Virus record (IMG/VR): IMGVR_UViG_2724679538_000004
Span: 45,799 to 109,798 of that record
Origin: a virus
Lineage: Duplodnaviria > Heunggongvirae > Uroviricota > Caudoviricetes
Direction: 5' to 3' (one strand)
Length of the DNA: 64,000 nucleotides
Shown here: one piece after another, positions 12,456-46,496 of the stretch
Layout: each line of letters begins with the position of its first letter
How positions within the stretch are numbered: position 1 is the first letter of the stretch
Program-made: the position numbers and the translations under genes
Notes under the pieces: model-generated
What the model saw: the letters and a program-made list of their open reading frames with translations, nothing else
Database searches by the model: none
Told to the model about the DNA's origin: nothing

Positions 12456-12529
12456 AGTTCCCCTACTCAAAATAAAGCCCATAGAGAGCATTTTGTTGCT
12501 GGGTAAGCCAATCGCATACCCAGCACTAA

Positions 12530-12577
12530 AAAAACGCGTCAGAAAGCTTCTCGTGCACGTTCTGACGCGTTTTTTAT
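12530..12577. terminator. intrinsic terminator (A-run, hairpin, T-run)
   Basis: AAAAAACGCGTCAGAA...TTCTGACGCGTTTTTT. Confidence 0.6.
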
Positions 12578-12606
12578 TGGTTGATATGCATTTGAGGAAA
12601 TGAAAA

Positions 12607-12628
12607 AATAGGTAAGTAGTTACCTATA
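12607..12628. promoter_or_regulatory. copy of recurrent palindrome (AATAGGTAAGTAGTTACCTATA)
   Basis: Inverted repeat 13 nt upstream of the Dam-like start. Confidence 0.4.
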
Positions 12629-12640
12629 CGGAGTGATTCA

Positions 12641-13234
12641 ATGATAGCGGCTGAGAAAATTAAAAAACGAGAGCGTGACCCTTCTCTTAGAGATCTATGG
12701 CGCACACCTCAATGGTTGTTTAACGCTATCCAGAAATACTTAGGTGTTCAATTCGATGTGGACGTTGCCTGCAACAAAGACAACGCTCTTCTTGCAAATT
12801 ACATAGGCGTGGAGCGTGATGCTTTGAAAAGCAACTGGGGAGAACCGGGCACTATAGCATTCCTAAACCCGCCCTACTCGAAAATTTCCCCGTGGATCGA
12901 GGCCGCAATACGCGAACAAGCACGAGGTGTCACTACAGTTATGCTTATACCACAATCCCTTGATACAAAATGGTATGAGCGGGCCACTGAGCACGCAAAC
13001 GAAACGGTTATTCTGTCTGGAGGTCGTGTGGCTTTCGTGGAACCAGACGTTAATTTGGGATTTGTGGAGGTAAACATTAACCCTGGTGGAAGTATGCTTC
13101 TGATTTTTAGAGGCTTTTGTCAGGGAGCTGGACACACGATTAGAAAAATTCCTCTGGCGGTGTTGAAACAGCTGGGGGGTTATGATCCTGCCAATGTTTC
13201 CAGAAAGAAAAGAACATACAAGAAGGCAGCTTAA
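12641..13234 (+). CDS. phage Dam-family DNA N6-adenine methyltransferase
   Basis: DLWRTPQWLF and NPPYS motifs typical of phage Dam-type methyltransferases. Confidence 0.7.
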   Translation: MIAAEKIKKRERDPSLRDLWRTPQWLFNAIQKYLGVQFDVDVACNKDNALLANYIGVERDALKSNWGEPGTIAFLNPPYSKISPWIEAAIREQARGVTTVMLIPQSLDTKWYERATEHANETVILSGGRVAFVEPDVNLGFVEVNINPGGSMLLIFRGFCQGAGHTIRKIPLAVLKQLGGYDPANVSRKKRTYKKAA

Positions 13235-13236
13235 GT

Positions 13237-13335
13237 TCTGTCTGGGAGTGTTCTTGGACCTGCTTCTGTATAAATAAATACATACTAATATATTAATATA
13301 CAGATGCAGGTTTTTTGTAGCAAACGTGCCAGACC
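13237..13335. repeat. nested-hairpin element (outer GTCTGGG/CCAGAC, inner AT-rich CCTGCTTCTGTATA/TATACAGATGCAGG, T-run)
   Basis: Read directly; a paralogous element lies at 42805-42903. Confidence 0.5.
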
Positions 13336-13416
13336 TTGACAACATCCCAGAACCCACTAGAAACCCTCCCCAGACGCTCTAGAATCAATTTTGAGTAGCA
13401 AAGTAAGGAAACACAC

Positions 13417-13647
13417 ATGGTCTATCAAACAAACGTTGTAGCGCTCGTTGAGAGCGATTTTCTAGCCCAGGCGCGTGAAATGCTTAAAGATCGCGAGCGG
13501 GCGTTTAATTTGTATGAATGGGCACTCAAATGCCTACATCTTGGCGAGCATAAAGAACTTGTTGAACAGCTGTTAGGTGAGTTGATTAATGAGGTGTTTG
13601 CCTTAAACGTCCAGCTACATGGGCGAGAAAGTAACCAACCCCAATAA
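13417..13647 (+). CDS. hypothetical small protein
   Basis: 76-aa ORF with AAGGAA RBS. Confidence 0.35.
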   Translation: MVYQTNVVALVESDFLAQAREMLKDRERAFNLYEWALKCLHLGEHKELVEQLLGELINEVFALNVQLHGRESNQPQ

Positions 13648-14183
13648 TAGATAAGTACCTACTATTCATATTATTTATCTTAAGTGATAGGATACTATAG
13701 TTTTCAGTCCATGTACTGGAGACTCGACCTGATGGGTGGAGGGTAGCGTCACTGGCGTCAGGTTTAAAAAAAAGCTCACTACCAGCGTAGAACCGGTGCC
13801 GTTTAGGCGCTGGGGAAGGGGGAACCAGAGTGAGCAGAGACAAGGGTCACTTTATGATTGTCGAGTCTGGGAAGTTCGAGAGGTTGAATCCAGTACTCCC
13901 CTTCATAAAGTGTGGGAAGATCTCGGTTCTGGGATGCTGTCATCCATAACTTCCCAAGCTTAAGCTGGCAGTAGACTTAAGCCATAACTTTTCAGGTTAT
14001 GAAACGACCAGGTTGGTGAGGAACTTTTGTACTCACCTCCCTGGGAGGATATTACCTGAAAAGACAACCTCTCACTTCGTTCGAGGTGAACTTCACTCAC
14101 TTCGTTCGTTCAGTTCAGATTAATTAAAAACCTCTTCTGGGAAGTAAGGTTTTAAAAAATAAATTTATTATTAATAAGTTATA

Positions 14184-14208
14184 ACACGCACGCGTGTGCG
14201 CACGCGCG
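14184..14208. other. 25-nt perfectly alternating purine/pyrimidine GC-rich tract (ACACGCACGCGTGTGCGCACGCGCG)
   Basis: Read directly; about 40 nt upstream of the RNase HI start. Confidence 0.5.
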
Positions 14209-14246
14209 AGGAAAAAATCGGCGCGGCGCTTGATTCAGGAGTTTAT

Positions 14247-14843
14247 ATGACGACGAAGACACCAGCCCGATCGCAAGCAAAAACTCTCAAAAAAGCCAAA
14301 AACAAAAATTCTCCCCGCACCAATCACACAACGCCTGTCGTAGAGTTCAATCCCCAGCTTAAAACCGTGAAAATCTTTAGTGATGGCTCTTGCCTTAAAA
14401 ATCCGGGTGGTCCTGGCGGTTACGGTATCGTTCTCCAGTATCGTGGTGAGGAACGCGAGTTCTCAGATGGTTTTCATAGCACCACTAATAACCGCATGGA
14501 GATGATGGGCGCACTCATCGGGCTGGAGCGTTTGAAATATCCATGCAACGTTATTTTGTACTCTGATAGCCAGTATCTGAAAAACGGCATGACACAGTGG
14601 ATGAAATGGTGGAAACGAAATGGATGGATGACTTCTGATAAAAAACCGGTAAAGAATGTTGATCTGTGGAAGCGTCTGGATGAGGCCGCAAGTCGACATA
14701 ATGTTCGCTGGAAGTGGGTTAAAGGCCATGCGGGACATCGTGAAAACGAGATCTGTGATCGTCTTGCTAAGATTGCAGCATTCACTGCCGCTGATACTCC
14801 ATTTAAAAAAGATTTAGGTTTTTTGAATCAAAATAGTAAGTAA
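14247..14843 (+). CDS. rnhA: ribonuclease HI with basic N-terminal extension
   Basis: [45 protein letters not shown] align with E. coli RNase HI; ATG 14247 preceded by CAGGAG. Confidence 0.85.
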
Positions 14844-25933: not shown

Positions 25934-25970
25934 TCAGGAACAGAGACGCAAACTCCGTTTCCTTTTAAAA

Positions 25971-25998
25971 AGCCCGGTCTAGTCAACTGGGCTTTTTA
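25971..25998 (+). terminator. terminator-like hairpin
   Basis: AGCCCGGTCTAGTCAACTGGGCT plus T-run. Confidence 0.45.
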
Positions 25999-26292
25999 AT
26001 GTCTGCTTTTTAACCAAACATACCCTCAATACTGCAACATCAGTGTCTTGCGAATCAAGATAGTGTGTATAGATTTTTCATGCAAGTGCATAAGTCTGTG
26101 GATAACTCAGGAAGGAAAAAGTGACTTCCGCGCACTTTAGGCCGGACAAGGCCTTCGAAAAAGTCAATGGGAAGAAAAAATTTGTTAAAAATAACGTTTG
26201 TTTGAATTGTATATTTTATACCTGTCAATAGTTAGCATCTTATTAACATCTTTTTTAAGAGACAGAGTTTAAAAACATGTCGCTCCAACATA

Positions 26293-39361: not shown

Positions 39362-39385
39362 AATAAGTAAGTGCTTATCTAATGG
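39362..39385. promoter_or_regulatory. copy of recurrent palindrome in a divergent intergenic region (AATAAGTAAGTGCTTATCTAATGG)
   Basis: Lies between the minus-strand helicase and the plus-strand ParB-like gene. Confidence 0.35.
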
Positions 39386-40080
39386 ATTGTATCAGCAAAA
39401 TGGATGTGAAAATCACGATTTTGCAGGTTGAAGTGGCCAACCTGCGTCCAAATTCATGGAACACCAACTCAGTAGGTGCTCAAAACTTCGAAAAACTGAA
39501 AGGATCTATCGAAAAATTGGGCTTTTTTAAGCCTATTTTGGCGCGTGAGCTTAATGACGGCATTTATGAAATCCTCGGCGGCGAACATCGCTGGCGTGCG
39601 GCCATTGAACAAGGAATTTCAACGGTTCCAGTGCTATCGGTTGGCAAAATTAGCGACTTAGTAGCGAAACAGATGTCACTCGTGGACAACGAACGCTACG
39701 GCGAAGACGATCAGATTGCTTTGCAGCGCTTTATTGAAGAAATTCAGTCTGAACTCGATTACCAGTTGTCAGAAATTGCCCCTTATGACGATGAAATTTC
39801 TATGGTTCTTGCAAAAGAGGCTGCAATTGACCTCGAAGCTCTTGAGGCACTGTCGCGTGGGGAGGATGAGCCTGTAGATACTGACAAGCGTGAAAAAATC
39901 GAACGCGCCGGAACAGATCATCAGACCATGCGTTTCAAAGTTACCTTTGATGCGTCAGATCGTGTTGCCGACACAATAAAAAACATCATCAAAGAACAAG
40001 CAATTAACACTGGCAATGAAATGGAGAACGCTGGTGAGGCTTTGGTGTGGCTGGTCGACTACTACAAGGAGCGTATGTAA
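39382..40080 (+). CDS. ParB-like nuclease-domain protein 1
   Basis: ILGGEHRWRAA matches the ParB/Srx box (GxxRxxA). Confidence 0.65.
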   Translation: MDCISKMDVKITILQVEVANLRPNSWNTNSVGAQNFEKLKGSIEKLGFFKPILARELNDGIYEILGGEHRWRAAIEQGISTVPVLSVGKISDLVAKQMSLVDNERYGEDDQIALQRFIEEIQSELDYQLSEIAPYDDEISMVLAKEAAIDLEALEALSRGEDEPVDTDKREKIERAGTDHQTMRFKVTFDASDRVADTIKNIIKEQAINTGNEMENAGEALVWLVDYYKERM

Positions 40081-40748
40081 TGACCAAAAAGTTTGAAATC
40101 GTATATCGCAATCCGGCAGATCTCATTCCTTACGAGATGAATGCCAAAAAGCATGATGAACAGCAGATCCGAGATCTGGCCGCAGCCATTAAAAAGCGCG
40201 GATTTGACCAGCCAATTACGGTCGATAAGAACGACGTAATTATTACTGGCCACGGCCGCCGTGAGGCTGCAATTTTTGCTGGGCTTGAGCGCGTACCAGT
40301 TATTGTTCGCGATGATCTGAGTGATGACGAGGTTCGTGCGAAGCGCCTTGAAGATAACCGACTCGCCAGCATTGATTACGATGCAATTAAGCTACAGAAA
40401 GAGCTTGAGTCGCTTGTTCTGGACGATATCGAGGTTTTCGGCTTTGAAGAGCGAGAGTTGAATGTTCTCGTTGGCAGCATGACTGAGGAAATGGATACCG
40501 ACTCGTTAGTTATCGATCTGGGCGAAGAAACCAAACGACAGAAGGATGAGCACACCGAAATCAGTCGTGAAGTTGCAGCGGAAGAAGTGCGCGTTGTCGA
40601 CGTATTGGGCTTTAAAACGCTCCCTGCTGGCTCTGCCATTGTTGTTGGTGATTTGCTTGCCCACATGGAAGAAATGACTGGAGAAAGCGGGGTAGACGCA
40701 TTTGTGGCATATGCGGAGAAGATCTCTTCCGGGGAGATGACTGCATGA
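40080..40748 (+). CDS. ParB-like nuclease-domain protein 2
   Basis: ITGHGRREAAIFAG ParB box; TAATG coupling with AAGGAG RBS. Confidence 0.65.
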   Translation: MTKKFEIVYRNPADLIPYEMNAKKHDEQQIRDLAAAIKKRGFDQPITVDKNDVIITGHGRREAAIFAGLERVPVIVRDDLSDDEVRAKRLEDNRLASIDYDAIKLQKELESLVLDDIEVFGFEERELNVLVGSMTEEMDTDSLVIDLGEETKRQKDEHTEISREVAAEEVRVVDVLGFKTLPAGSAIVVGDLLAHMEEMTGESGVDAFVAYAEKISSGEMTA

Positions 40749-41383
40749 GCAAATACATCATCAACGTATCGTTTCAGACTCGCGTAAATAAAACCACGCG
40801 CACGTTGGAAATCGCCGAGTCGTTCGGGCTTGGCCTTGACGAAAAAGAGTGGACGCTTTACGACAATCTGGAGCTGGAAGTTAAGCAGGGCGATGTAGTG
40901 TACATCACCGGCCAATCCGGTTCAGGCAAATCAGTTGTGCTGCGCGAACTGCAACGCCAGATGAAAGATGAAGGGCTTTCTGTGGCCTCCATCGATGATT
41001 TTACATTCGACAATGATGTTAACGTCATCGACCAGCTAGGGAAAACAACCAGCGAAGCGCTGGGGCTGCTGTCTATGGCCGGATTGAATGACGCCTATCT
41101 CTTTGTGCGCAAACCTTCCGAAATGTCTGACGGTCAGAAATATCGTCTCAAGATCGCCAAGCTAATTGAGTCAGGCGCAAAAGTGTGGGCTGCGGACGAG
41201 TTCGGTGCTGTTCTTGATCGTGTAACGGCGCAGGTCGTGGCGTCCAATCTACAGCGTGCAGCCCGTAAAGTTGGGGCGACGGTGATGGTTGCGACAACTC
41301 ATGAGGACCTTAAAAACGCTCTTCGTCCTGATATGCAGATCACTAAGCACTATAAAGAGCGAGTGAAGGTGGAATATGCCTGA
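40745..41383 (+). CDS. small ABC-type ATPase
   Basis: Walker A GQSGSGKS, signature-like SDGQKYR, Walker B AADEFG, H-loop TTHE; ATGA coupling. Confidence 0.6.
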   Translation: MSKYIINVSFQTRVNKTTRTLEIAESFGLGLDEKEWTLYDNLELEVKQGDVVYITGQSGSGKSVVLRELQRQMKDEGLSVASIDDFTFDNDVNVIDQLGKTTSEALGLLSMAGLNDAYLFVRKPSEMSDGQKYRLKIAKLIESGAKVWAADEFGAVLDRVTAQVVASNLQRAARKVGATVMVATTHEDLKNALRPDMQITKHYKERVKVEYA

Positions 41384-41630
41384 TTTGAAGATTGTAGAGC
41401 TGAAGCCATCGAAAGAGGATGACAATAACAATGTTGAGGTCATCCGCTTGCTGGAAGAAGCACTCCAGTACGCCAGAGAAGGCAAATCCCAGAGTCTGGC
41501 GCTGCTGATGATCAATAACGACGGCAGTGTCATGGATTGCTGGCATAACGGTGGGCGTCCTTACGTCATGGTTGGGGCGATGGAATCGCTTCGCCTGGAC
41601 TTCATCAATGCCAATATAGAGCGCAGGTGA
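41376..41630 (+). CDS. hypothetical small protein
   Basis: 84-aa ORF overlapping the ATPase gene. Confidence 0.4.
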   Translation: MPDLKIVELKPSKEDDNNNVEVIRLLEEALQYAREGKSQSLALLMINNDGSVMDCWHNGGRPYVMVGAMESLRLDFINANIERR

Positions 41631-41635
41631 TCGAC

Positions 41636-42526
41636 ATGACAGACATCATCATCAAACGCTACCGCCTTGAAGAGTTTCCGCGTCATCTGGACTTTCTGGA
41701 GCGAATGACTGTCACAAAGGGGACTGTAGAGGACTGGCACGCTCTTAAGTCGCTTCACTACAAAACTGACGGCAAACCTTTCGCACCAACTTATTATCGC
41801 TGCGAACTGGATGGCCGTCTGGTGGGCGTCGTGGTAATGGCTTACCCGAAACTTTTGCTGGCACCTCGCCATCGCATGTTTCCTAAGTTGAAACCAACCA
41901 CTAACACCACCGTGGCGAACCAGTACTGGGGGCGATACGTGAATAACAACTTTGCGGTGATCAGTCGCTCAGTTGTGGATACTCAGTACCGTGGCGTTGG
42001 CGTCTCTTATCGAATGATTAACCTGGTTAGCAGGATGCATGATCGGCCAATAATTGAGATCCAGTCCTCAATGAGCAAATACAATCCCTTCGCCATGAAA
42101 GCAGGGTTCAAGTTCATCCGCCCTGAGCGACCGAAGAGCTATGAAAGTGCACTGCGTGTGTTCCAGCGCCATTTCCGCTCCGACCCGGGAGATAACGAGG
42201 CGATCGTCAAAGAGTTGTTCGCAATGAGCGAGTCCCGTCGTCGCCGTGCACTGCGTGATCTGGTGGCGGACTACCACAAGAACAGTTCCCTGGCAAAAGC
42301 TGGGCGGAATCGTGGCACGACGATTCAGGACATTGCCGACAGTCTCGTGGACGAGGCCAGCATAGTGAAGCTGCTCAAGGACATTCACAACCTGAGCTTT
42401 ACGTCTCCGTTGTATGGTGTGTACCGAAACCCTGACTTTGGCCGTCGACTGCCTGATTCGCTGCCACTGCTGGCATTCGACAAACAACCTTTGGATAAAC
42501 CGTTAGAAATTGCTTTACCGGCATAA
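41636..42526 (+). CDS. GNAT-like acyltransferase-fold protein (putative)
   Basis: VVDTQYRGVGVSYRMINLV resembles GNAT motif A (Q/R-x-x-G-x-G/A). Confidence 0.45.
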   Translation: MTDIIIKRYRLEEFPRHLDFLERMTVTKGTVEDWHALKSLHYKTDGKPFAPTYYRCELDGRLVGVVVMAYPKLLLAPRHRMFPKLKPTTNTTVANQYWGRYVNNNFAVISRSVVDTQYRGVGVSYRMINLVSRMHDRPIIEIQSSMSKYNPFAMKAGFKFIRPERPKSYESALRVFQRHFRSDPGDNEAIVKELFAMSESRRRRALRDLVADYHKNSSLAKAGRNRGTTIQDIADSLVDEASIVKLLKDIHNLSFTSPLYGVYRNPDFGRRLPDSLPLLAFDKQPLDKPLEIALPA

Positions 42527-42535
42527 GGATTTGCC

Positions 42536-42802
42536 ATGACGTTAACCGATAAACAAAAGGACATTATCAAAACGCTCAATCTCGGTTATGAACGAGGACA
42601 TCTACTTGATCTGGACGAATTGCTTGAAGTTTTGCCCTACAAAACATCTAAGCAAAGTATCCAGTTCTCTATTCGCGCACTGATCAAAAAAGGGCTGGTG
42701 GAGAAAGGAAACACTCGCCAGCGCAGTGATACTCGATATCACCGTCGTACTCTTGGGTTAACTACTTTAGGTCGAGCACGAGCCAAATTACTGGTGATGT
42801 AA
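42536..42802 (+). CDS. small basic protein, possible winged-helix DNA-binding
   Basis: 88-aa basic ORF. Confidence 0.35.
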   Translation: MTLTDKQKDIIKTLNLGYERGHLLDLDELLEVLPYKTSKQSIQFSIRALIKKGLVEKGNTRQRSDTRYHRRTLGLTTLGRARAKLLVM

Positions 42803-42804
42803 TA

Positions 42805-42903
42805 GGTCTGGGGTGCTTATTTAAAGCCTGCGTCTGTATATATAAATAATAAATAACTTATTAAATATATACGGAAGCAGGTTCAATAAGACACGCCCAG
42901 ACC
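42805..42903. repeat. nested-hairpin element paralogous to 13237-13335
   Basis: Outer GGTCTGGGG/CCCAGACC, inner CCTGCGTCTGTATATATA/TATATACGGAAGCAGG. Confidence 0.5.
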
Positions 42904-42917
42904 TAATTTGACACCCC

Positions 42918-42964
42918 AGAAAACAAGTTGGTTAGTGAATGCAATAAACAAGTTGTTTTAGAGC
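42918..42964 (+). promoter_or_regulatory. two copies of the promoter/operator family motif
   Basis: CAGAAAACAAGTTGGTTAG and AATAAACAAGTTGTTTTAGAG. Confidence 0.4.
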
Positions 42965-42998
42965 GCATGGACGCGCTCTGTGTGTTTTAGAGGGATCT

Positions 42999-43631
42999 AT
43001 GACTGTCGAAAAAGACGAGGGAAAAACTCGCCTGACACCAGCGGAGTGGGCCGAAGCAGAAGCCAAATGGACGTCAGGCGAATATACACTCTCAAAGCTG
43101 GAGGAAGAGTACGGCATTCGCCGTGAAACACTCTCCAGACATTTCAAAAAGCGAGGATTGGAGAAAGGCGCAGACTCTGTTGGGAAGATGGTTCGCGAGT
43201 CTCTCAAATCTGACGCAGAGCTTCGTGCTAAAGCCCGTGCAGAAAAGATAGAAGAACGTCGTACACGTTATGACGGCTGGGCATATGCCTTGGGGCAGAT
43301 GGTGATGGTCGAAGTCACTACTGCTAAACGTGAGGGAAAACCTTTAGGGGGGATTGAGGATTCTCTTAAGAGCTTACAGAGAGCAAGTAATACCCTTGCA
43401 AAATGCTTTGAAATTTCGTCCAAAGCGTTGGGCATGGATCATGCGGAAAATGACGAGGAAGAAATTCCTAACCTGGTATTTGGCGAACTTACGCCTTCTC
43501 AGGTGGCGAAATTACGTCAGGAAGACGATGAGCCTGAAATCATCGATGACGAATTGCTTGAGGCACTAGAGGAAGAAGCTCTTAGCGAACTGGACGCCAG
43601 TGAGGAGGAGAGCGAAGGGGGAGATAAGTAA
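42999..43631 (+). CDS. terminase small subunit (putative)
   Basis: Immediately upstream of and coupled to the large terminase; acidic C-terminus. Confidence 0.5.
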   Translation: MTVEKDEGKTRLTPAEWAEAEAKWTSGEYTLSKLEEEYGIRRETLSRHFKKRGLEKGADSVGKMVRESLKSDAELRAKARAEKIEERRTRYDGWAYALGQMVMVEVTTAKREGKPLGGIEDSLKSLQRASNTLAKCFEISSKALGMDHAENDEEEIPNLVFGELTPSQVAKLRQEDDEPEIIDDELLEALEEEALSELDASEEESEGGDK

Positions 43632-44887
43632 TGTCGATCCCGTCTTCTCTGAGTCTTGTGCAGCTGCATTCTGGGCAGATGAAGGTGTTCCAGTCGCCAC
43701 ATCGATTTAAGGTGGTATGCGCAGGTCGTCGCTGGGGTAAGTCCAGGTTGTCGATCTCAACCATAATTCGTGCGGCAGCAAAGAGCAAAAAGCAAAGAGT
43801 CTGGTACGTAGCGCCGACCTATCAAATGGCACGCCAGATTCTGTGGGATGACCTACAGGAAGTTCTGCCTCGCAAGTGGGTTCGTAAAAAGAACGACACC
43901 ACGATGACAATCGTGTTGAAGAACGGTTCTGAGATCGCCCTCAAAGGTGCTGATAAACCTGACACTCTGCGCGGCGTAGCGTTGCATTTTGTAGTGCTTG
44001 ATGAATTTCAGGATATGAAGGCTGATACCTGGTACAAGGTATTACGACCTACTCTTTCATCGACACGAGGCGGTGCACTGATCATTGGTACGCCAAAAGG
44101 ATTCTCGGAATTTCACAAACTGTGGACCATCGGCCAGAACATTGAGCTGCAAAGAAAAGGACAGTGGAAGAGTTGGCAGTTTGTTACCGCTGATTCTCCG
44201 TTTGTGCCTACTGCCGAAATCGAAGCGGCAAAGAACGATATGGACCCGAAGTCCTTTGCGCAGGAATACCTGGCCAGCTTCGAAAACATGTCAGGTCGTG
44301 TTTATTACCCGTTTGATCGTAACGTGCATGTGAAGCCACTCCAGTTCAATCCGAAACTACCTATTTGGGTTGGGCAGGATTTCAACATAGACCCGATGTC
44401 TTCTGTAATTTTGCAACCACAGCCAAACGGTGAACTATGGGCAGTTGATGAGTTGGTACTCTTCTCATCAAACACGGCAGAAGTGTGTGACGAACTGGAA
44501 CGACGCTATTGGCGATGGAAATCGCAGGTGACGATTTTTCCTGACCCCGCTGGGGCATATCGTCAGCACGCGCGAGGTGAATCAGATGTCGATATCTTTA
44601 AAGAAAAGGGATTCTTACGTGTTGACTATTCGAAGAAGCACCCGCCGATTGCAGATCGTGTGAATGCTGTAAACCGTATGCTGATGAGCGCATCAGGTGA
44701 AGTTCGTCTCTATGTCGATCCTAAGTGCAAGCACCTCATAGATTCTCTTGAAAAGGTTATCTACAAGCCCGGATCTCGTGACATGGATAAGTCAGGTGGG
44801 GTTGAGCACAGCGCAGACGCATTGGGCTACCCAGTTCATCGTAGGTATCCGGTGAAAAATCGTGTTATTCTTGGTGGATCTAGATAG
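43631..44887 (+). CDS. terminase large subunit
   Basis: Walker A VVCAGRRWGKSRL, Walker B FVVLDEFQD; followed by the portal gene. Confidence 0.75.
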   Translation: MSIPSSLSLVQLHSGQMKVFQSPHRFKVVCAGRRWGKSRLSISTIIRAAAKSKKQRVWYVAPTYQMARQILWDDLQEVLPRKWVRKKNDTTMTIVLKNGSEIALKGADKPDTLRGVALHFVVLDEFQDMKADTWYKVLRPTLSSTRGGALIIGTPKGFSEFHKLWTIGQNIELQRKGQWKSWQFVTADSPFVPTAEIEAAKNDMDPKSFAQEYLASFENMSGRVYYPFDRNVHVKPLQFNPKLPIWVGQDFNIDPMSSVILQPQPNGELWAVDELVLFSSNTAEVCDELERRYWRWKSQVTIFPDPAGAYRQHARGESDVDIFKEKGFLRVDYSKKHPPIADRVNAVNRMLMSASGEVRLYVDPKCKHLIDSLEKVIYKPGSRDMDKSGGVEHSADALGYPVHRRYPVKNRVILGGSR

Positions 44888-44921: not shown

Positions 44922-46496
44922 ATGGAATTGGATGACAAACAAATTAAAGATTTAGTGGCAAGACGCCACCCTGAATACGAAAAGAAAAAGACACATTGGG
45001 ACTTCCTCGCCAGCACTTACGCTGGTGGGCGTGGTTGGTTCGCTGACAACATCTTTCGTTATTTCAAAGAAGGCGATCAGGAGTTTAAGGAACGTCTTGA
45101 GCGTGCTTACCGCTTCAATCACACCCGTGAAGTAGTAAACCTCATTAATAAATACCTGTTTAAAGAAGATATCCATCGAAACACAGAGGAAGCGCCTGAG
45201 CAGATCCGTAACTTCTGGAAAAGAGCGACACGCCAGAATGCATCTATCGACTCATTTATGGCTGCTATCGATTTGCAATCGTCAATCTATGGCCGTATTT
45301 GGGTTGTTGTAGATAGCACAATGAATGGTGATGTGGAGTCAGTCGCTGATGAGAAGAGGAAGAATGCACGTGCCTATGCCTACTGGATTTCCCCTCAACA
45401 AATGCTGGATGTGGCATGGGATGATGACGGCAATATGTTATGGGCGTTAATTGTGGAAGTTGCTCGTGATGATGCAGATCCATTTACTTCAACCGGTCAG
45501 GAATACCAACGTTATCGTCTGTGGACACAAAACGAGTGGTATCTGTTCCGTGAAGAAGTTAAGAAGAGCGCTGGCGGAGCCGGTCGCCGTCAGGCAAAAG
45601 TTATTTTAGAGGATAGCGGTGAACATAATCTCGGCGTAGTTCCCGTGTTTCCTGTTGATTGTATTGGAGAAAGCGAATCACCGTATTTCAGTCCATCGTT
45701 AATCGATGACATCGCATATCTTGATCGTGCTGTAGCCAACTATTTGTCTAACCTTGATGCCATTATTCAGGATCAAACTTTCAGTCAGTTGGCTATCCCC
45801 GTGCAGTCGATGATGCCTGGTGATGAAAGCCATAGCAAGGTGCTGGAAATGGGCACAAAACGAGTTTTCACCTACGATTCTGAAGGTGGAAACCAGCCGT
45901 TTTATCTTTCTCCAGATCCAAAACAAGCTCAGATGATCATCACTACGATTAAGACGGTGATTAATGAAATCTACCATTCAGTTGGTGTTGCTGGCGAACG
46001 AACGAAGCAGGATAACGCACAGGGAATCGATAACTCTTCTGGTGCCGCTAAGATGTATGACTTCCAGCGAGTTAACAGTCTGCTGGTCACAAAAGCAGAG
46101 CGTCTTGAAAGGGCAGAGCGACAAATTATGCAACTTGTCGCTAAATGGATGGGAGTCGAGCTGGATGAAGACCATTCTCTAATTGCTTACCCTGAGAGTT
46201 TTGATATTCGCGGTCTTACTGACGAATTTGCTGTTGCTGAGAAGCTGTCAATGCTTCAAGCGCCTGATTCTGTACGTCGTCGTCAGATGGAAATGCTCAT
46301 CGAGAAGATTTTCCCGAATATCACTGAGGCGATGAAAAAGGAATTTGATAAAGATCTCTTGAATTTTCCGCCAAAAAATGATCTAAATACCCTTGAAAAT
46401 AAGTCAGTACTTACTTATCATCGAGATACAGCTCAAGAAACCGAGCAAGATCAACCCCGAGGGAGTGGGGACTCATCTACTCAAGAAACCGAGTGA
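44922..46496 (+). CDS. portal protein (putative)
   Basis: 524 aa; position between terminase and scaffold. Confidence 0.6.
   Translation: MELDDKQIKDLVARRHPEYEKKKTHWDFLASTYAGGRGWFADNIFRYFKEGDQEFKERLERAYRFNHTREVVNLINKYLFKEDIHRNTEEAPEQIRNFWKRATRQNASIDSFMAAIDLQSSIYGRIWVVVDSTMNGDVESVADEKRKNARAYAYWISPQQMLDVAWDDDGNMLWALIVEVARDDADPFTSTGQEYQRYRLWTQNEWYLFREEVKKSAGGAGRRQAKVILEDSGEHNLGVVPVFPVDCIGESESPYFSPSLIDDIAYLDRAVANYLSNLDAIIQDQTFSQLAIPVQSMMPGDESHSKVLEMGTKRVFTYDSEGGNQPFYLSPDPKQAQMIITTIKTVINEIYHSVGVAGERTKQDNAQGIDNSSGAAKMYDFQRVNSLLVTKAERLERAERQIMQLVAKWMGVELDEDHSLIAYPESFDIRGLTDEFAVAEKLSMLQAPDSVRRRQMEMLIEKIFPNITEAMKKEFDKDLLNFPPKNDLNTLENKSVLTYHRDTAQETEQDQPRGSGDSSTQETE

Follow-up and report, generated by a model that had tools for sequence, protein, structure and literature searches.

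We describe a family of three long palindromes, elements A, B and C, in SSU5/pHCM2-type phage-plasmids. Two of them, A and B, lie in the 64,000-nucleotide (nt) stretch of viral DNA that was analysed here (the window; positions 45,799 to 109,798 of IMG/VR record IMGVR_UViG_2724679538_000004). To judge from the sequence comparisons, the window is part of such a phage-plasmid, and A, B and C are a three-copy palindrome family that is private to phage-plasmids of this type and was not described before. A follows the dam gene, B precedes the terminase genes and C precedes a helicase-primase operon. We tentatively propose that the three elements are operon-boundary hairpins acting mainly on the + strand transcript, a reading that we consider plausible while holding it with less than even confidence.

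A palindrome family at three positions

The initial annotation of the window had proposed a pair of paralogous nested hairpins. Both were found at the places given there. The sequence and the computed folds both revealed an outer and an inner stem in A and in B, and a pairwise alignment showed 82% identity between the inner palindromes and 76% between the whole elements. The alignment contained 75 identical positions; the best of 2000 random window segments reached 72. The half-site CCTGCNTCNGTATA, allowing at most one mismatch, had four matches in the window, which are the four arms of A and B, and this count was reached by none of 100 shuffles. Similarly, the family profile at maximum sensitivity found exactly two sites in the window, A and B (E<1e-6). 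The common core of the two, CCTGCnTCYGTATA...TATACRGAnGCAGG, spans 52-55 nt and occurs nowhere else in the window.

BLAST searches with the A and B regions returned matches only in SSU5-type phage-plasmids, the relatives being Salmonella phage SSU5, Escherichia phages PhiR41_1, CMS-2020a and Cyrano, and Klebsiella phage-plasmids. The dam region (window 12600-13700) was ~76% identical to its closest relatives and the terminase region (42500-43700) ~91% identical to the same phages (PhiR41_1, CMS-2020a), so the phage-plasmid of the window is a mosaic. The window ends in tail genes.

To place the copies, the strict core pattern was scanned against IMG/VR, yielding >118 loci, and the flanks of the matches were mapped onto the complete pHCM2 genome. 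All 127 strict matches, mostly from IMG/VR, were located at A (after dam), B (before terS) or C (before the helicase-primase operon). Because C is ~30 kb beyond B, it is outside the window; pHCM2 and many IMG/VR contigs contain three core copies. The pair proposed initially was therefore related as supposed, but incomplete. Class counts given below refer to distinct sequences (A, n = 26; B, n = 26; C, n = 23). In most relatives, C comes right after a ParA-type partition operon. Its left flank is a junction with a variable accessory region, and C is retained together with its downstream operon irrespective of what precedes it. A co-directional open reading frame (ORF) ends 5-53 nt upstream of C in nine of 16 distinct contexts.

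The B region matched 797 PLSDB plasmids from Klebsiella, Escherichia, Enterobacter, Y. pestis (pMT1), Salmonella (pHCM2), Citrobacter and Cronobacter. Among 5426 complete E. coli genomes, 260 had matches, at 526 places that were all on plasmids; with none of the 526 chromosomal, a chromosomal repeat of the ERIC/REP type was rejected. A relaxed pattern found 14 stretches in species-representative genomes. Nine of these, on eight contigs, were real and had SSU5-like flanks, and five were chance palindromes. The real matches came only from Kluyvera, Buttiauxella and Y. pestis contigs with A/B/C flanks and from one mislabelled metagenome-assembled genome. pMT1 keeps B, the only copy that the relaxed pattern detected in Y. 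pestis; the dam region and A are absent from the pMT1 stretch examined (L008, pG8786/pMT1 12945-14596), where an IS1541 transposase gene adjoins nrdB. An A ortholog follows dam in all relatives examined except pMT1. The conservation on which the initial annotation had staked its proposal was borne out for A and B in SSU5-type relatives. In pHCM2, a lone half-site, TATACAGAAGCAGG (NZ_CP029901 88151-88168; locus L130), lies inside a cobT-like 'porphyrin biosynthesis' gene and is probably a chance match or a relic.

A scan of the whole window against Rfam at gathering thresholds gave no match. The searchable literature on SSU5, pHCM2 and pMT1 contains no description of this palindrome family, and we found nothing in it on lytic-gene control in SSU5/pHCM2-type elements. 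With all strict matches at the three positions, the core is a simple diagnostic for SSU5-like elements. These phage-plasmids are frequent in clinical Enterobacterales and include pHCM2 of S. Typhi and the Y. pestis pMT1 backbone; some carry resistance genes.

Hairpin anatomy, polarity and a proposed boundary role

The constant core of the family reads CCTGC-N-TC-Y-GTATA(TA)n ... TATAC-R-GA-N-GCAGG, and slippage of (TA)n gives inner palindromes of 49-57 nt. In a set of genomes independent of the pattern (the window, pHCM2, one Klebsiella plasmid and one Enterobacter plasmid), the inner arms differ only at positions 6, 8 and 9, whereas the flanking genes are 63-82% identical. The Cronobacter plasmid has a few further arm changes. 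The AT-rich centre is itself symmetric: 21 of 26 B and 17 of 23 C sequences have TAAGTNACTTA exactly, and 10 of 26 A sequences have TAAGTACTAA. The centre of B in the window (42850-42860), TAAATAACTTA, is one mismatch from TAAGTNACTTA; in Cronobacter, A and B have a common derived centre, ACTGGTTA. The C copy in pHCM2 is perfectly palindromic (24+1+24). A and B have the outer stem, GGTCTGGGAG/CTCCCAGACC, which often lacks its left part at C and is missing in Cronobacter.

The elements are polar. At every imperfect copy the family profile scored the + strand higher, as for A of the window, where nhmmer gave 43.9 bits on the + strand and 29.6 bits on the - strand. A U-tract was called when the 9 nt 3' of the inner stem contained at least five T. 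On the + strand, this was the case for 24 of 26 A sequences, all 23 C sequences and none of the 26 B sequences; on the - strand, the respective counts were 0/26 (A), 6/23 (C) and 11/26 (B). The 3' T-run that had been attributed to both window elements accordingly belongs to A, where TTTTTT comes right after the stem. In B, only TAATTT follows the outer stem, and there is no true T-run.

Both hairpins have a GC-rich base (CCUGC/GCAGG) and fold energies far below those of shuffled controls. B is a near-perfect hairpin of ~44 paired positions, with an RNA fold of -53.1 kcal/mol (z = -10.2) and a single-stranded DNA fold of -28.9 kcal/mol (z = -9.2). A is weaker (RNA fold -32.3 kcal/mol, z = -3.7); its outer stem has 6 bp, and its inner stem, of ~20 bp, contains mismatches. 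The single-stranded DNA folds parallel the RNA folds for both elements. Several of the substitutions preserve pairing. Position 9 runs through the pair series C-G, U.G and U-A (13, 12 and 7 of 36 sequences), position 8 has changed from C-G to U-A in Klebsiella A, and the pair beside the arms is sometimes AU and sometimes GC. In two IMG/VR lineages (L027 and L061), the outer stem of B has gone from GC to AU on both sides with the next CCCAGAA box unchanged. The wobbles of B speak for the + strand, on which 18 G.U cells and three A.C cells were counted over related sequences.

These features suggest how a boundary hairpin might work. The three copies would mark the upstream edges of lytic units: A that of the block with the 76-amino-acid (aa) ORF, rnhA and the antirepressor, B that of terS, terL and the virion genes, and C that of the helicase-primase operon. 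In A and C, the GC-rich CCUGC/GCAGG base, the AU-rich upper stem and the U-tract would together make an intrinsic terminator. A would end the dam unit, and C the par operon and the accessory-gene unit. Both may also shield a weak, regulated promoter 45-85 nt downstream from read-through in the plasmid state. B would be the same hairpin with the U-tract lost and the stem extended to ~45 bp, so that RNA polymerase could read through it into a leader with two operator-like palindromes and a terminator-like second hairpin before terS. B itself may then serve as a 3'-stabilising or RNase III-type processing hairpin, with late expression gated further downstream. Of the functions suggested in the initial annotation, a complex terminator fits A, with its GC-based stem, U6, position 5 nt after the dam stop codon and U-tract in nearly all A sequences, and is not supported for B, with the tract in none of the 26 sequences. 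The variable length of the inner palindrome also fits a hairpin better than a rigid dimer sitting on both arms of duplex DNA. A phage-encoded or host factor probably recognises the elements as well, as implied by their near-invariant primary sequence and conserved centre motif.

Several observations weigh against the boundary-hairpin reading. The arm sequence is invariant apart from positions 6, 8 and 9, although terminators need no particular sequence, and the conserved, palindromic centre resembles a dispersed 10-bp operator-like palindrome. Long AU-rich stems are atypical of efficient terminators. As 11 of the 13 inner consensus pairs never or almost never vary, covariation support is thin; the covariation term was -0.13. 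In addition, one class A lineage (eight distinct sequences) has a C.A mismatch on the + strand, contrary to the wobble preference. The U-tract pattern is reversed in Cronobacter, where B has CTTTT and A has none. Finally, the gene upstream of C is divergent in seven of 16 contexts, including that of pHCM2, leaving nothing co-directional to terminate.

Taken with two dispersed motifs described below, the three palindromes provide a concrete map of cis-regulatory signals, with terminators or insulators, promoter candidates, operators and, ahead of terS, an attenuator in the leader. Should the elements be terminators and nothing more, what is gained is a useful annotation; should they be read by a dedicated factor, they would open a way to the lysis-lysogeny switch of the SSU5/pHCM2-type family.

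Surroundings of the elements and alternative functions

Table 1. Positions of the elements, their parts and neighbouring features. Positions are those of the window unless pHCM2 is named.
Feature	Position	Strand	Basis or content
Element A, complete nested hairpin	13240-13334	+	sequence; RNA fold
A outer arms	GTCTGGG 13240-13246, CCAGAC 13329-13334	+	sequence
A inner AT-centred palindrome (family core), CCTGCTTCTGTATA...TATACAGATGCAGG	13259-13310	+	half-site search; nhmmer
TTTTTT directly 3' of A inner hairpin (GCAGG then T6), candidate U-tract	13311-13316	+	sequence
Dam-type N6-adenine methyltransferase gene, last before A	12641-13234	+	Pfam PF05869, E = 9e-38
Region 3' of A	13329-13385	+	CCAGAC/CCAGAA/CCAGAC boxes at 13329, 13347, 13370
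76-aa ORF (phrog_5343), first gene 3' of A	13417-13647	+	
rnhA, after the 76-aa ORF	14196-14843		
88-aa winged-helix protein gene (phrog_900), last before B	42536-42802	+	weak LexA_DNA_bind and Lrs14/Sta1 matches
Element B, complete ~100-nt hairpin	42803-42906	+	sequence; inverted repeat I1; RNA fold
B outer arms GGTCTGGGG and CCCAGACC	within 42803-42906	+	
B inner palindrome CCTGCGTCTGTATA...TATACGGAAGCAGG	42827-42881	+	half-site search; family profile 60.3 bits
Region 3' of B	42908-42958	+	TTGACA 42908-42913; CCCCAGAAAAC box 42914-42924
Second hairpin, GAGCGC-ATGGAC-GCGCTC then TGTGTGTTTTAG, abutting terS ribosome-binding site	42961-42990	+	terminator scan
Gene for terS-like DNA-binding protein, 210 aa (phrog_867)	42999-43631	+	PHROG
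Terminase large subunit gene	43631-44887	+	Pfam Terminase_6N, Terminase_3, Terminase_6C; PHROG terminase families
Element C	pHCM2 70346-70450		upstream of operon for phrog_2500 protein, DnaB-type helicase and DnaG-type primase
AAACAANTTGTTT sites in window	5346, 15744, 17299, 18639, 21726, 27652, 27703, 29315, 30502, 31408, 32160, 32975, 42921, 42946		
TAAGTACTTA sites in window	2908, 7636, 12613, 13652, 14841, 20354, 30909, 37869, 39368, 44889, 46404, 48327, 57446		

The stop codon of dam is 5 nt upstream of the start of A. A promoter scan 3' of A returned TAGAAA-16-TAGAAT, composed of a -35-like TAGAAA (13358-13363) and a -10-like TAGAAT (13380-13385). The sequence CCAGACGCT-N-TA-N-AAT 3' of A is kept in relatives, in which the CCAGA(C/A) boxes 3' of A and C end in CCAG(A/T)CGCT-N-TA-N-AAT. 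The dam gene has a unit of its own. Upstream of it are, in order, a perfect 16-bp bidirectional terminator (12529-12575), a promoter-like TTGATA-17-AAAAAT (12581-12609) that includes a TG motif, and a palindrome of the TAAGTA type (12611-12624) where transcription is predicted to start; the ATG is at 12641.

B follows the 88-aa ORF without a gap, starting at the first nucleotide past its stop codon, and ends 93 nt short of the terS-like start codon, upstream of the terminase genes as initially annotated. The conserved operon just upstream of B (39382-42802) encodes two ParB_N proteins, an ABC-type ATPase, an 84-aa protein, a 299-aa ATPase-like protein (phrog_886) and the 88-aa winged-helix protein. 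An AlphaFold2 model of the latter (predicted local distance difference test score ~84, residues 1-55) had as its top folds the LexA N-terminal domain, HrcA and DtxR-type winged helix-turn-helix domains; the structure showed a generic winged-helix fold only, and computation gave no tie to the palindrome. Between B and terS there are two copies of AAACAANTTGTTT (42921-42933 and 42946-42958). A sigma-70 promoter was considered in this interval, where CCTAAT aligns with the -10 of the TGnGATAAT class; CCTAAT is replaced by CCGGTT in SSU5 and pHCM2, so no promoter is claimed there. The second hairpin is kept in relatives, and its Cronobacter form, CGGCGC/GCGCCG, contains two compensatory pairs. Its sequence and location suggest an attenuator or antitermination checkpoint of the late operon.

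It was proposed initially that the elements might be small RNA (sRNA) genes. Stable, conserved hairpins and the terminator-like 3' end of A would suit genes for small stable RNAs. Nevertheless, the promoter and terminator scans found no fitting sigma-70 promoter in front of either hairpin, and no Rfam family matched. Moreover, both hairpins start 0-5 nt after the upstream stop codon, which makes them parts of the 3' untranslated regions of mRNAs. A sRNA catalogue of Y. pestis based on RNA-seq lists two pMT1 sRNAs, sR082 and sR083; they map near ymt and a DUF4145 gene and not at B. We consider sRNA genes scarcely credible.

The initial proposals further included cis sites for packaging or replication, neither of which emerged as a function shared by the elements, given a core present three times per genome, a large terminase subunit (TerL) that is not of the lambda type and the lack of a GC-skew inflection. 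For packaging, B would be the initiation site, a pac or less likely a cos site cut by terminase, and A and C would be unrelated or pseudo-sites. B is in the classical place for this, directly upstream of terS and terL. In addition, the linear SSU5 GenBank record JQ965645 (positions 1 and 103299; L004 and L005) starts at the border of the B loop and right arm, equivalent to window position 42864, and only B is followed by two AAACAAGTTG repeats 25 bp apart, which might be TerS sites. However, assemblies can be expected to break artificially at an inverted repeat with three copies, and such a break would produce the same SSU5 start. The AAACAANTTGTTT repeats belong to a 14-copy promoter-proximal motif that is not specific to B. 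The nearest relatives of TerL are P74-26 TerL and T4 gp17, both from the PDB, and T5-like and Jersey/Dhillon-like phages (~26% identity), with no lambda-type cos lineage, which is indirect evidence against a cos site. B is also still present in pMT1, although that replicon is annotated as a plasmid only and much of its phage backbone is gone. The start of the Cyrano record was rejected as an independent mapping of an end: the Cyrano paper reports a re-annotation only, without analysis of termini, and the record was merely re-oriented to SSU5. Three core copies per genome, together with an IMG/VR contig in which the 55 nt of B and C do not differ at all, exclude that the palindrome defines a cos nicking site. 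A headful pac site could tolerate extra copies, so that a pac at B is weakened only; overall, packaging initiation at B seems very unlikely.

In lytic replication, the palindromes would act on DNA as an origin that unwinds at its AT-rich centre, as a cruciform or hairpin target of an SbcCD-like nuclease that seeds recombination-dependent replication, or as a recombination hot spot where modules meet. Their AT-rich centre between GC-rich arms and their strong single-stranded DNA folds are in line with such a role, as are the positions of C before the helicase-primase operon and of A before rnhA. The phage-plasmid also encodes SbcCD-like, exonuclease and recombinase genes, and the left flank of C is the junction with the variable accessory region. 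On the other hand, in pHCM2 the cumulative GC skew climbs monotonically and changes direction only near repA, without inflecting at any of the three copies. Neither iterons nor an initiator gene were identified next to them, and polarity and U-tracts would be left unexplained. We regard a replicative role as highly improbable. A protelomerase target (telRL) was also considered and rejected, as the relatives are circular plasmids and no protelomerase gene is annotated in pHCM2.

Two further palindromes are dispersed over the window. The first, AAACAANTTGTTT (usually AGAAAACAANTTGTTTA), has 14 copies in the window, where 0.6 would be expected, and 20 in pHCM2. Typically, an extended -10 (TGnGATAAT) comes first, followed by 10 nt, the palindrome, a Shine-Dalgarno sequence and a start codon; in this setting the copies resemble a set of operators on the promoters of many small genes at 15-33 kb. 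Of the second, TAAGTACTTA (full form ATAGGTAAGTACTTACCTAT), the window contains 13 copies, where 1.7 would be expected, and pHCM2 contains 17. They are found at or near gene boundaries, right after a -10-like hexamer (AATAAT, CATAAT, AAAAAT) and usually 1-50 nt before a start codon, and also between late genes such as terL and portal.

TAAGTACTTA recurs in variant form at the centres of A, B and C, and the centre of pHCM2 A is itself a match. This relationship bears on the alternative that the elements are regulatory palindromes at the DNA level, high-affinity binding or nucleation sites (duplex or cruciform) for a protein of the phage-plasmid. Such a protein would silence or activate the promoter just downstream and so constitute a dispersed master switch for three lytic operons. 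Candidate binders are the factor that binds TAAGTACTTA, the 88-aa winged-helix protein, whose gene abuts B, and the two upstream ParB-N proteins. Consistent with this alternative, the arms are invariant relative to the flanking genes, the palindromy extends through the very centre, most fully in pHCM2 C, and that centre is related to an operator-like palindrome of 13-17 copies. The copies within a genome are also alike, suggesting concerted evolution or co-evolution with a factor; C stays with its downstream operon whatever lies upstream; and CCAGAC boxes and -10-like hexamers occur 3' of each copy.

Other features fit DNA binding poorly. The directional U-tract of A and C would have no role. 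Arm spacing varies by 8 bp (49-57 nt), so a fixed half-site geometry is not kept, and ~125 bp separate the centre of the palindrome from the putative start site, a distance at which simple occlusion would not work. The outer-arm change in L027 and L061 is compensatory, with the next CCAGAA box unchanged. CCCAGAC occurs ~22 times in pHCM2 (chance ~13 by our estimate), mostly outside the elements; this count, and the co-variation of the outer arms as a stem, led us to reject the CCAGAC boxes as a genome-wide binding motif. Given the extreme sequence conservation and the operator-like centre, we rate a DNA-level or factor-dependent role somewhat below the boundary hairpin, as a serious alternative to it or a layer added to it.

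The palindromes, as DNA or as nascent hairpin RNA, might nucleate a factor that couples the plasmid (lysogenic) and lytic states, a proposal that we deem unlikely. The helicase-primase, rnhA/antirepressor and virion operons would then be shut in the plasmid state and released together on induction, and the elements would form one layer of a cis-code to which the AAACAANTTGTTT and TAAGTACTTA families also belong. If true, this would be the first description of the lysis-lysogeny circuit of SSU5/pHCM2/pMT1-type elements.

Comparison with known systems

The oriS and oriL palindromes of herpes simplex virus are AT-centred, have conserved inverted arms and are present in three copies. The present family is likewise AT-centred, with inverted arms and three copies; it differs in having no skew signal, no identified origin-binding protein and a polarity that is tied to transcription. 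The cos site of lambda and the pac sites of P1, P22 and SPP1 resemble B in its position immediately upstream of terS/terL, its AT-rich symmetric core and its flanking repeats. Unlike those sites, the core has three copies in each genome, and TerL belongs to a non-lambda type.

Dispersed palindromes that bind proteins include the sopC-like centromere repeats of N15, the KorB operators (OB) of RK2, the C1 operators of P1, the stoperators of L5 and the SAS/ESAS of cluster-K phages. Similar to sites of the N15, KorB and P1 C1 type, the elements are a few conserved palindromes scattered at operon heads of a phage-plasmid, C adjoins a ParA-type operon in most relatives and the centre is related to a multi-copy operator-like motif. 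In contrast to such sites, the elements are far longer (50-100 bp) and have variable arm spacing and directional U-tracts.

The RNase III hairpins of the T7 early and late mRNAs and lambda sib are comparable as several paralogous long hairpins between genes of long phage transcripts. The ~45-bp, near-continuous duplex of B, with at least two helical turns, would suit a putative cleavage if the region is transcribed as supposed. RNase III sites of T7 have characteristic internal loops and no U-tract after them. The family differs from these hairpins in that its copies lie at operon borders, beside promoters.

Intrinsic terminators such as lambda tR' and T7 T-phi differ from the family in several respects: its stem, 20-25 bp long, consists mostly of AU pairs and is kept in sequence as well as in structure over three paralogues and several genera, and B has the hairpin without the U-tract. 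Ordinary short bidirectional terminators occur elsewhere in the window (12529-12575 and 25965-25999). Like intrinsic terminators, A and C have a GC-rich stem base, an immediate U-tract and strict polarity, and A comes just after a co-directional gene.

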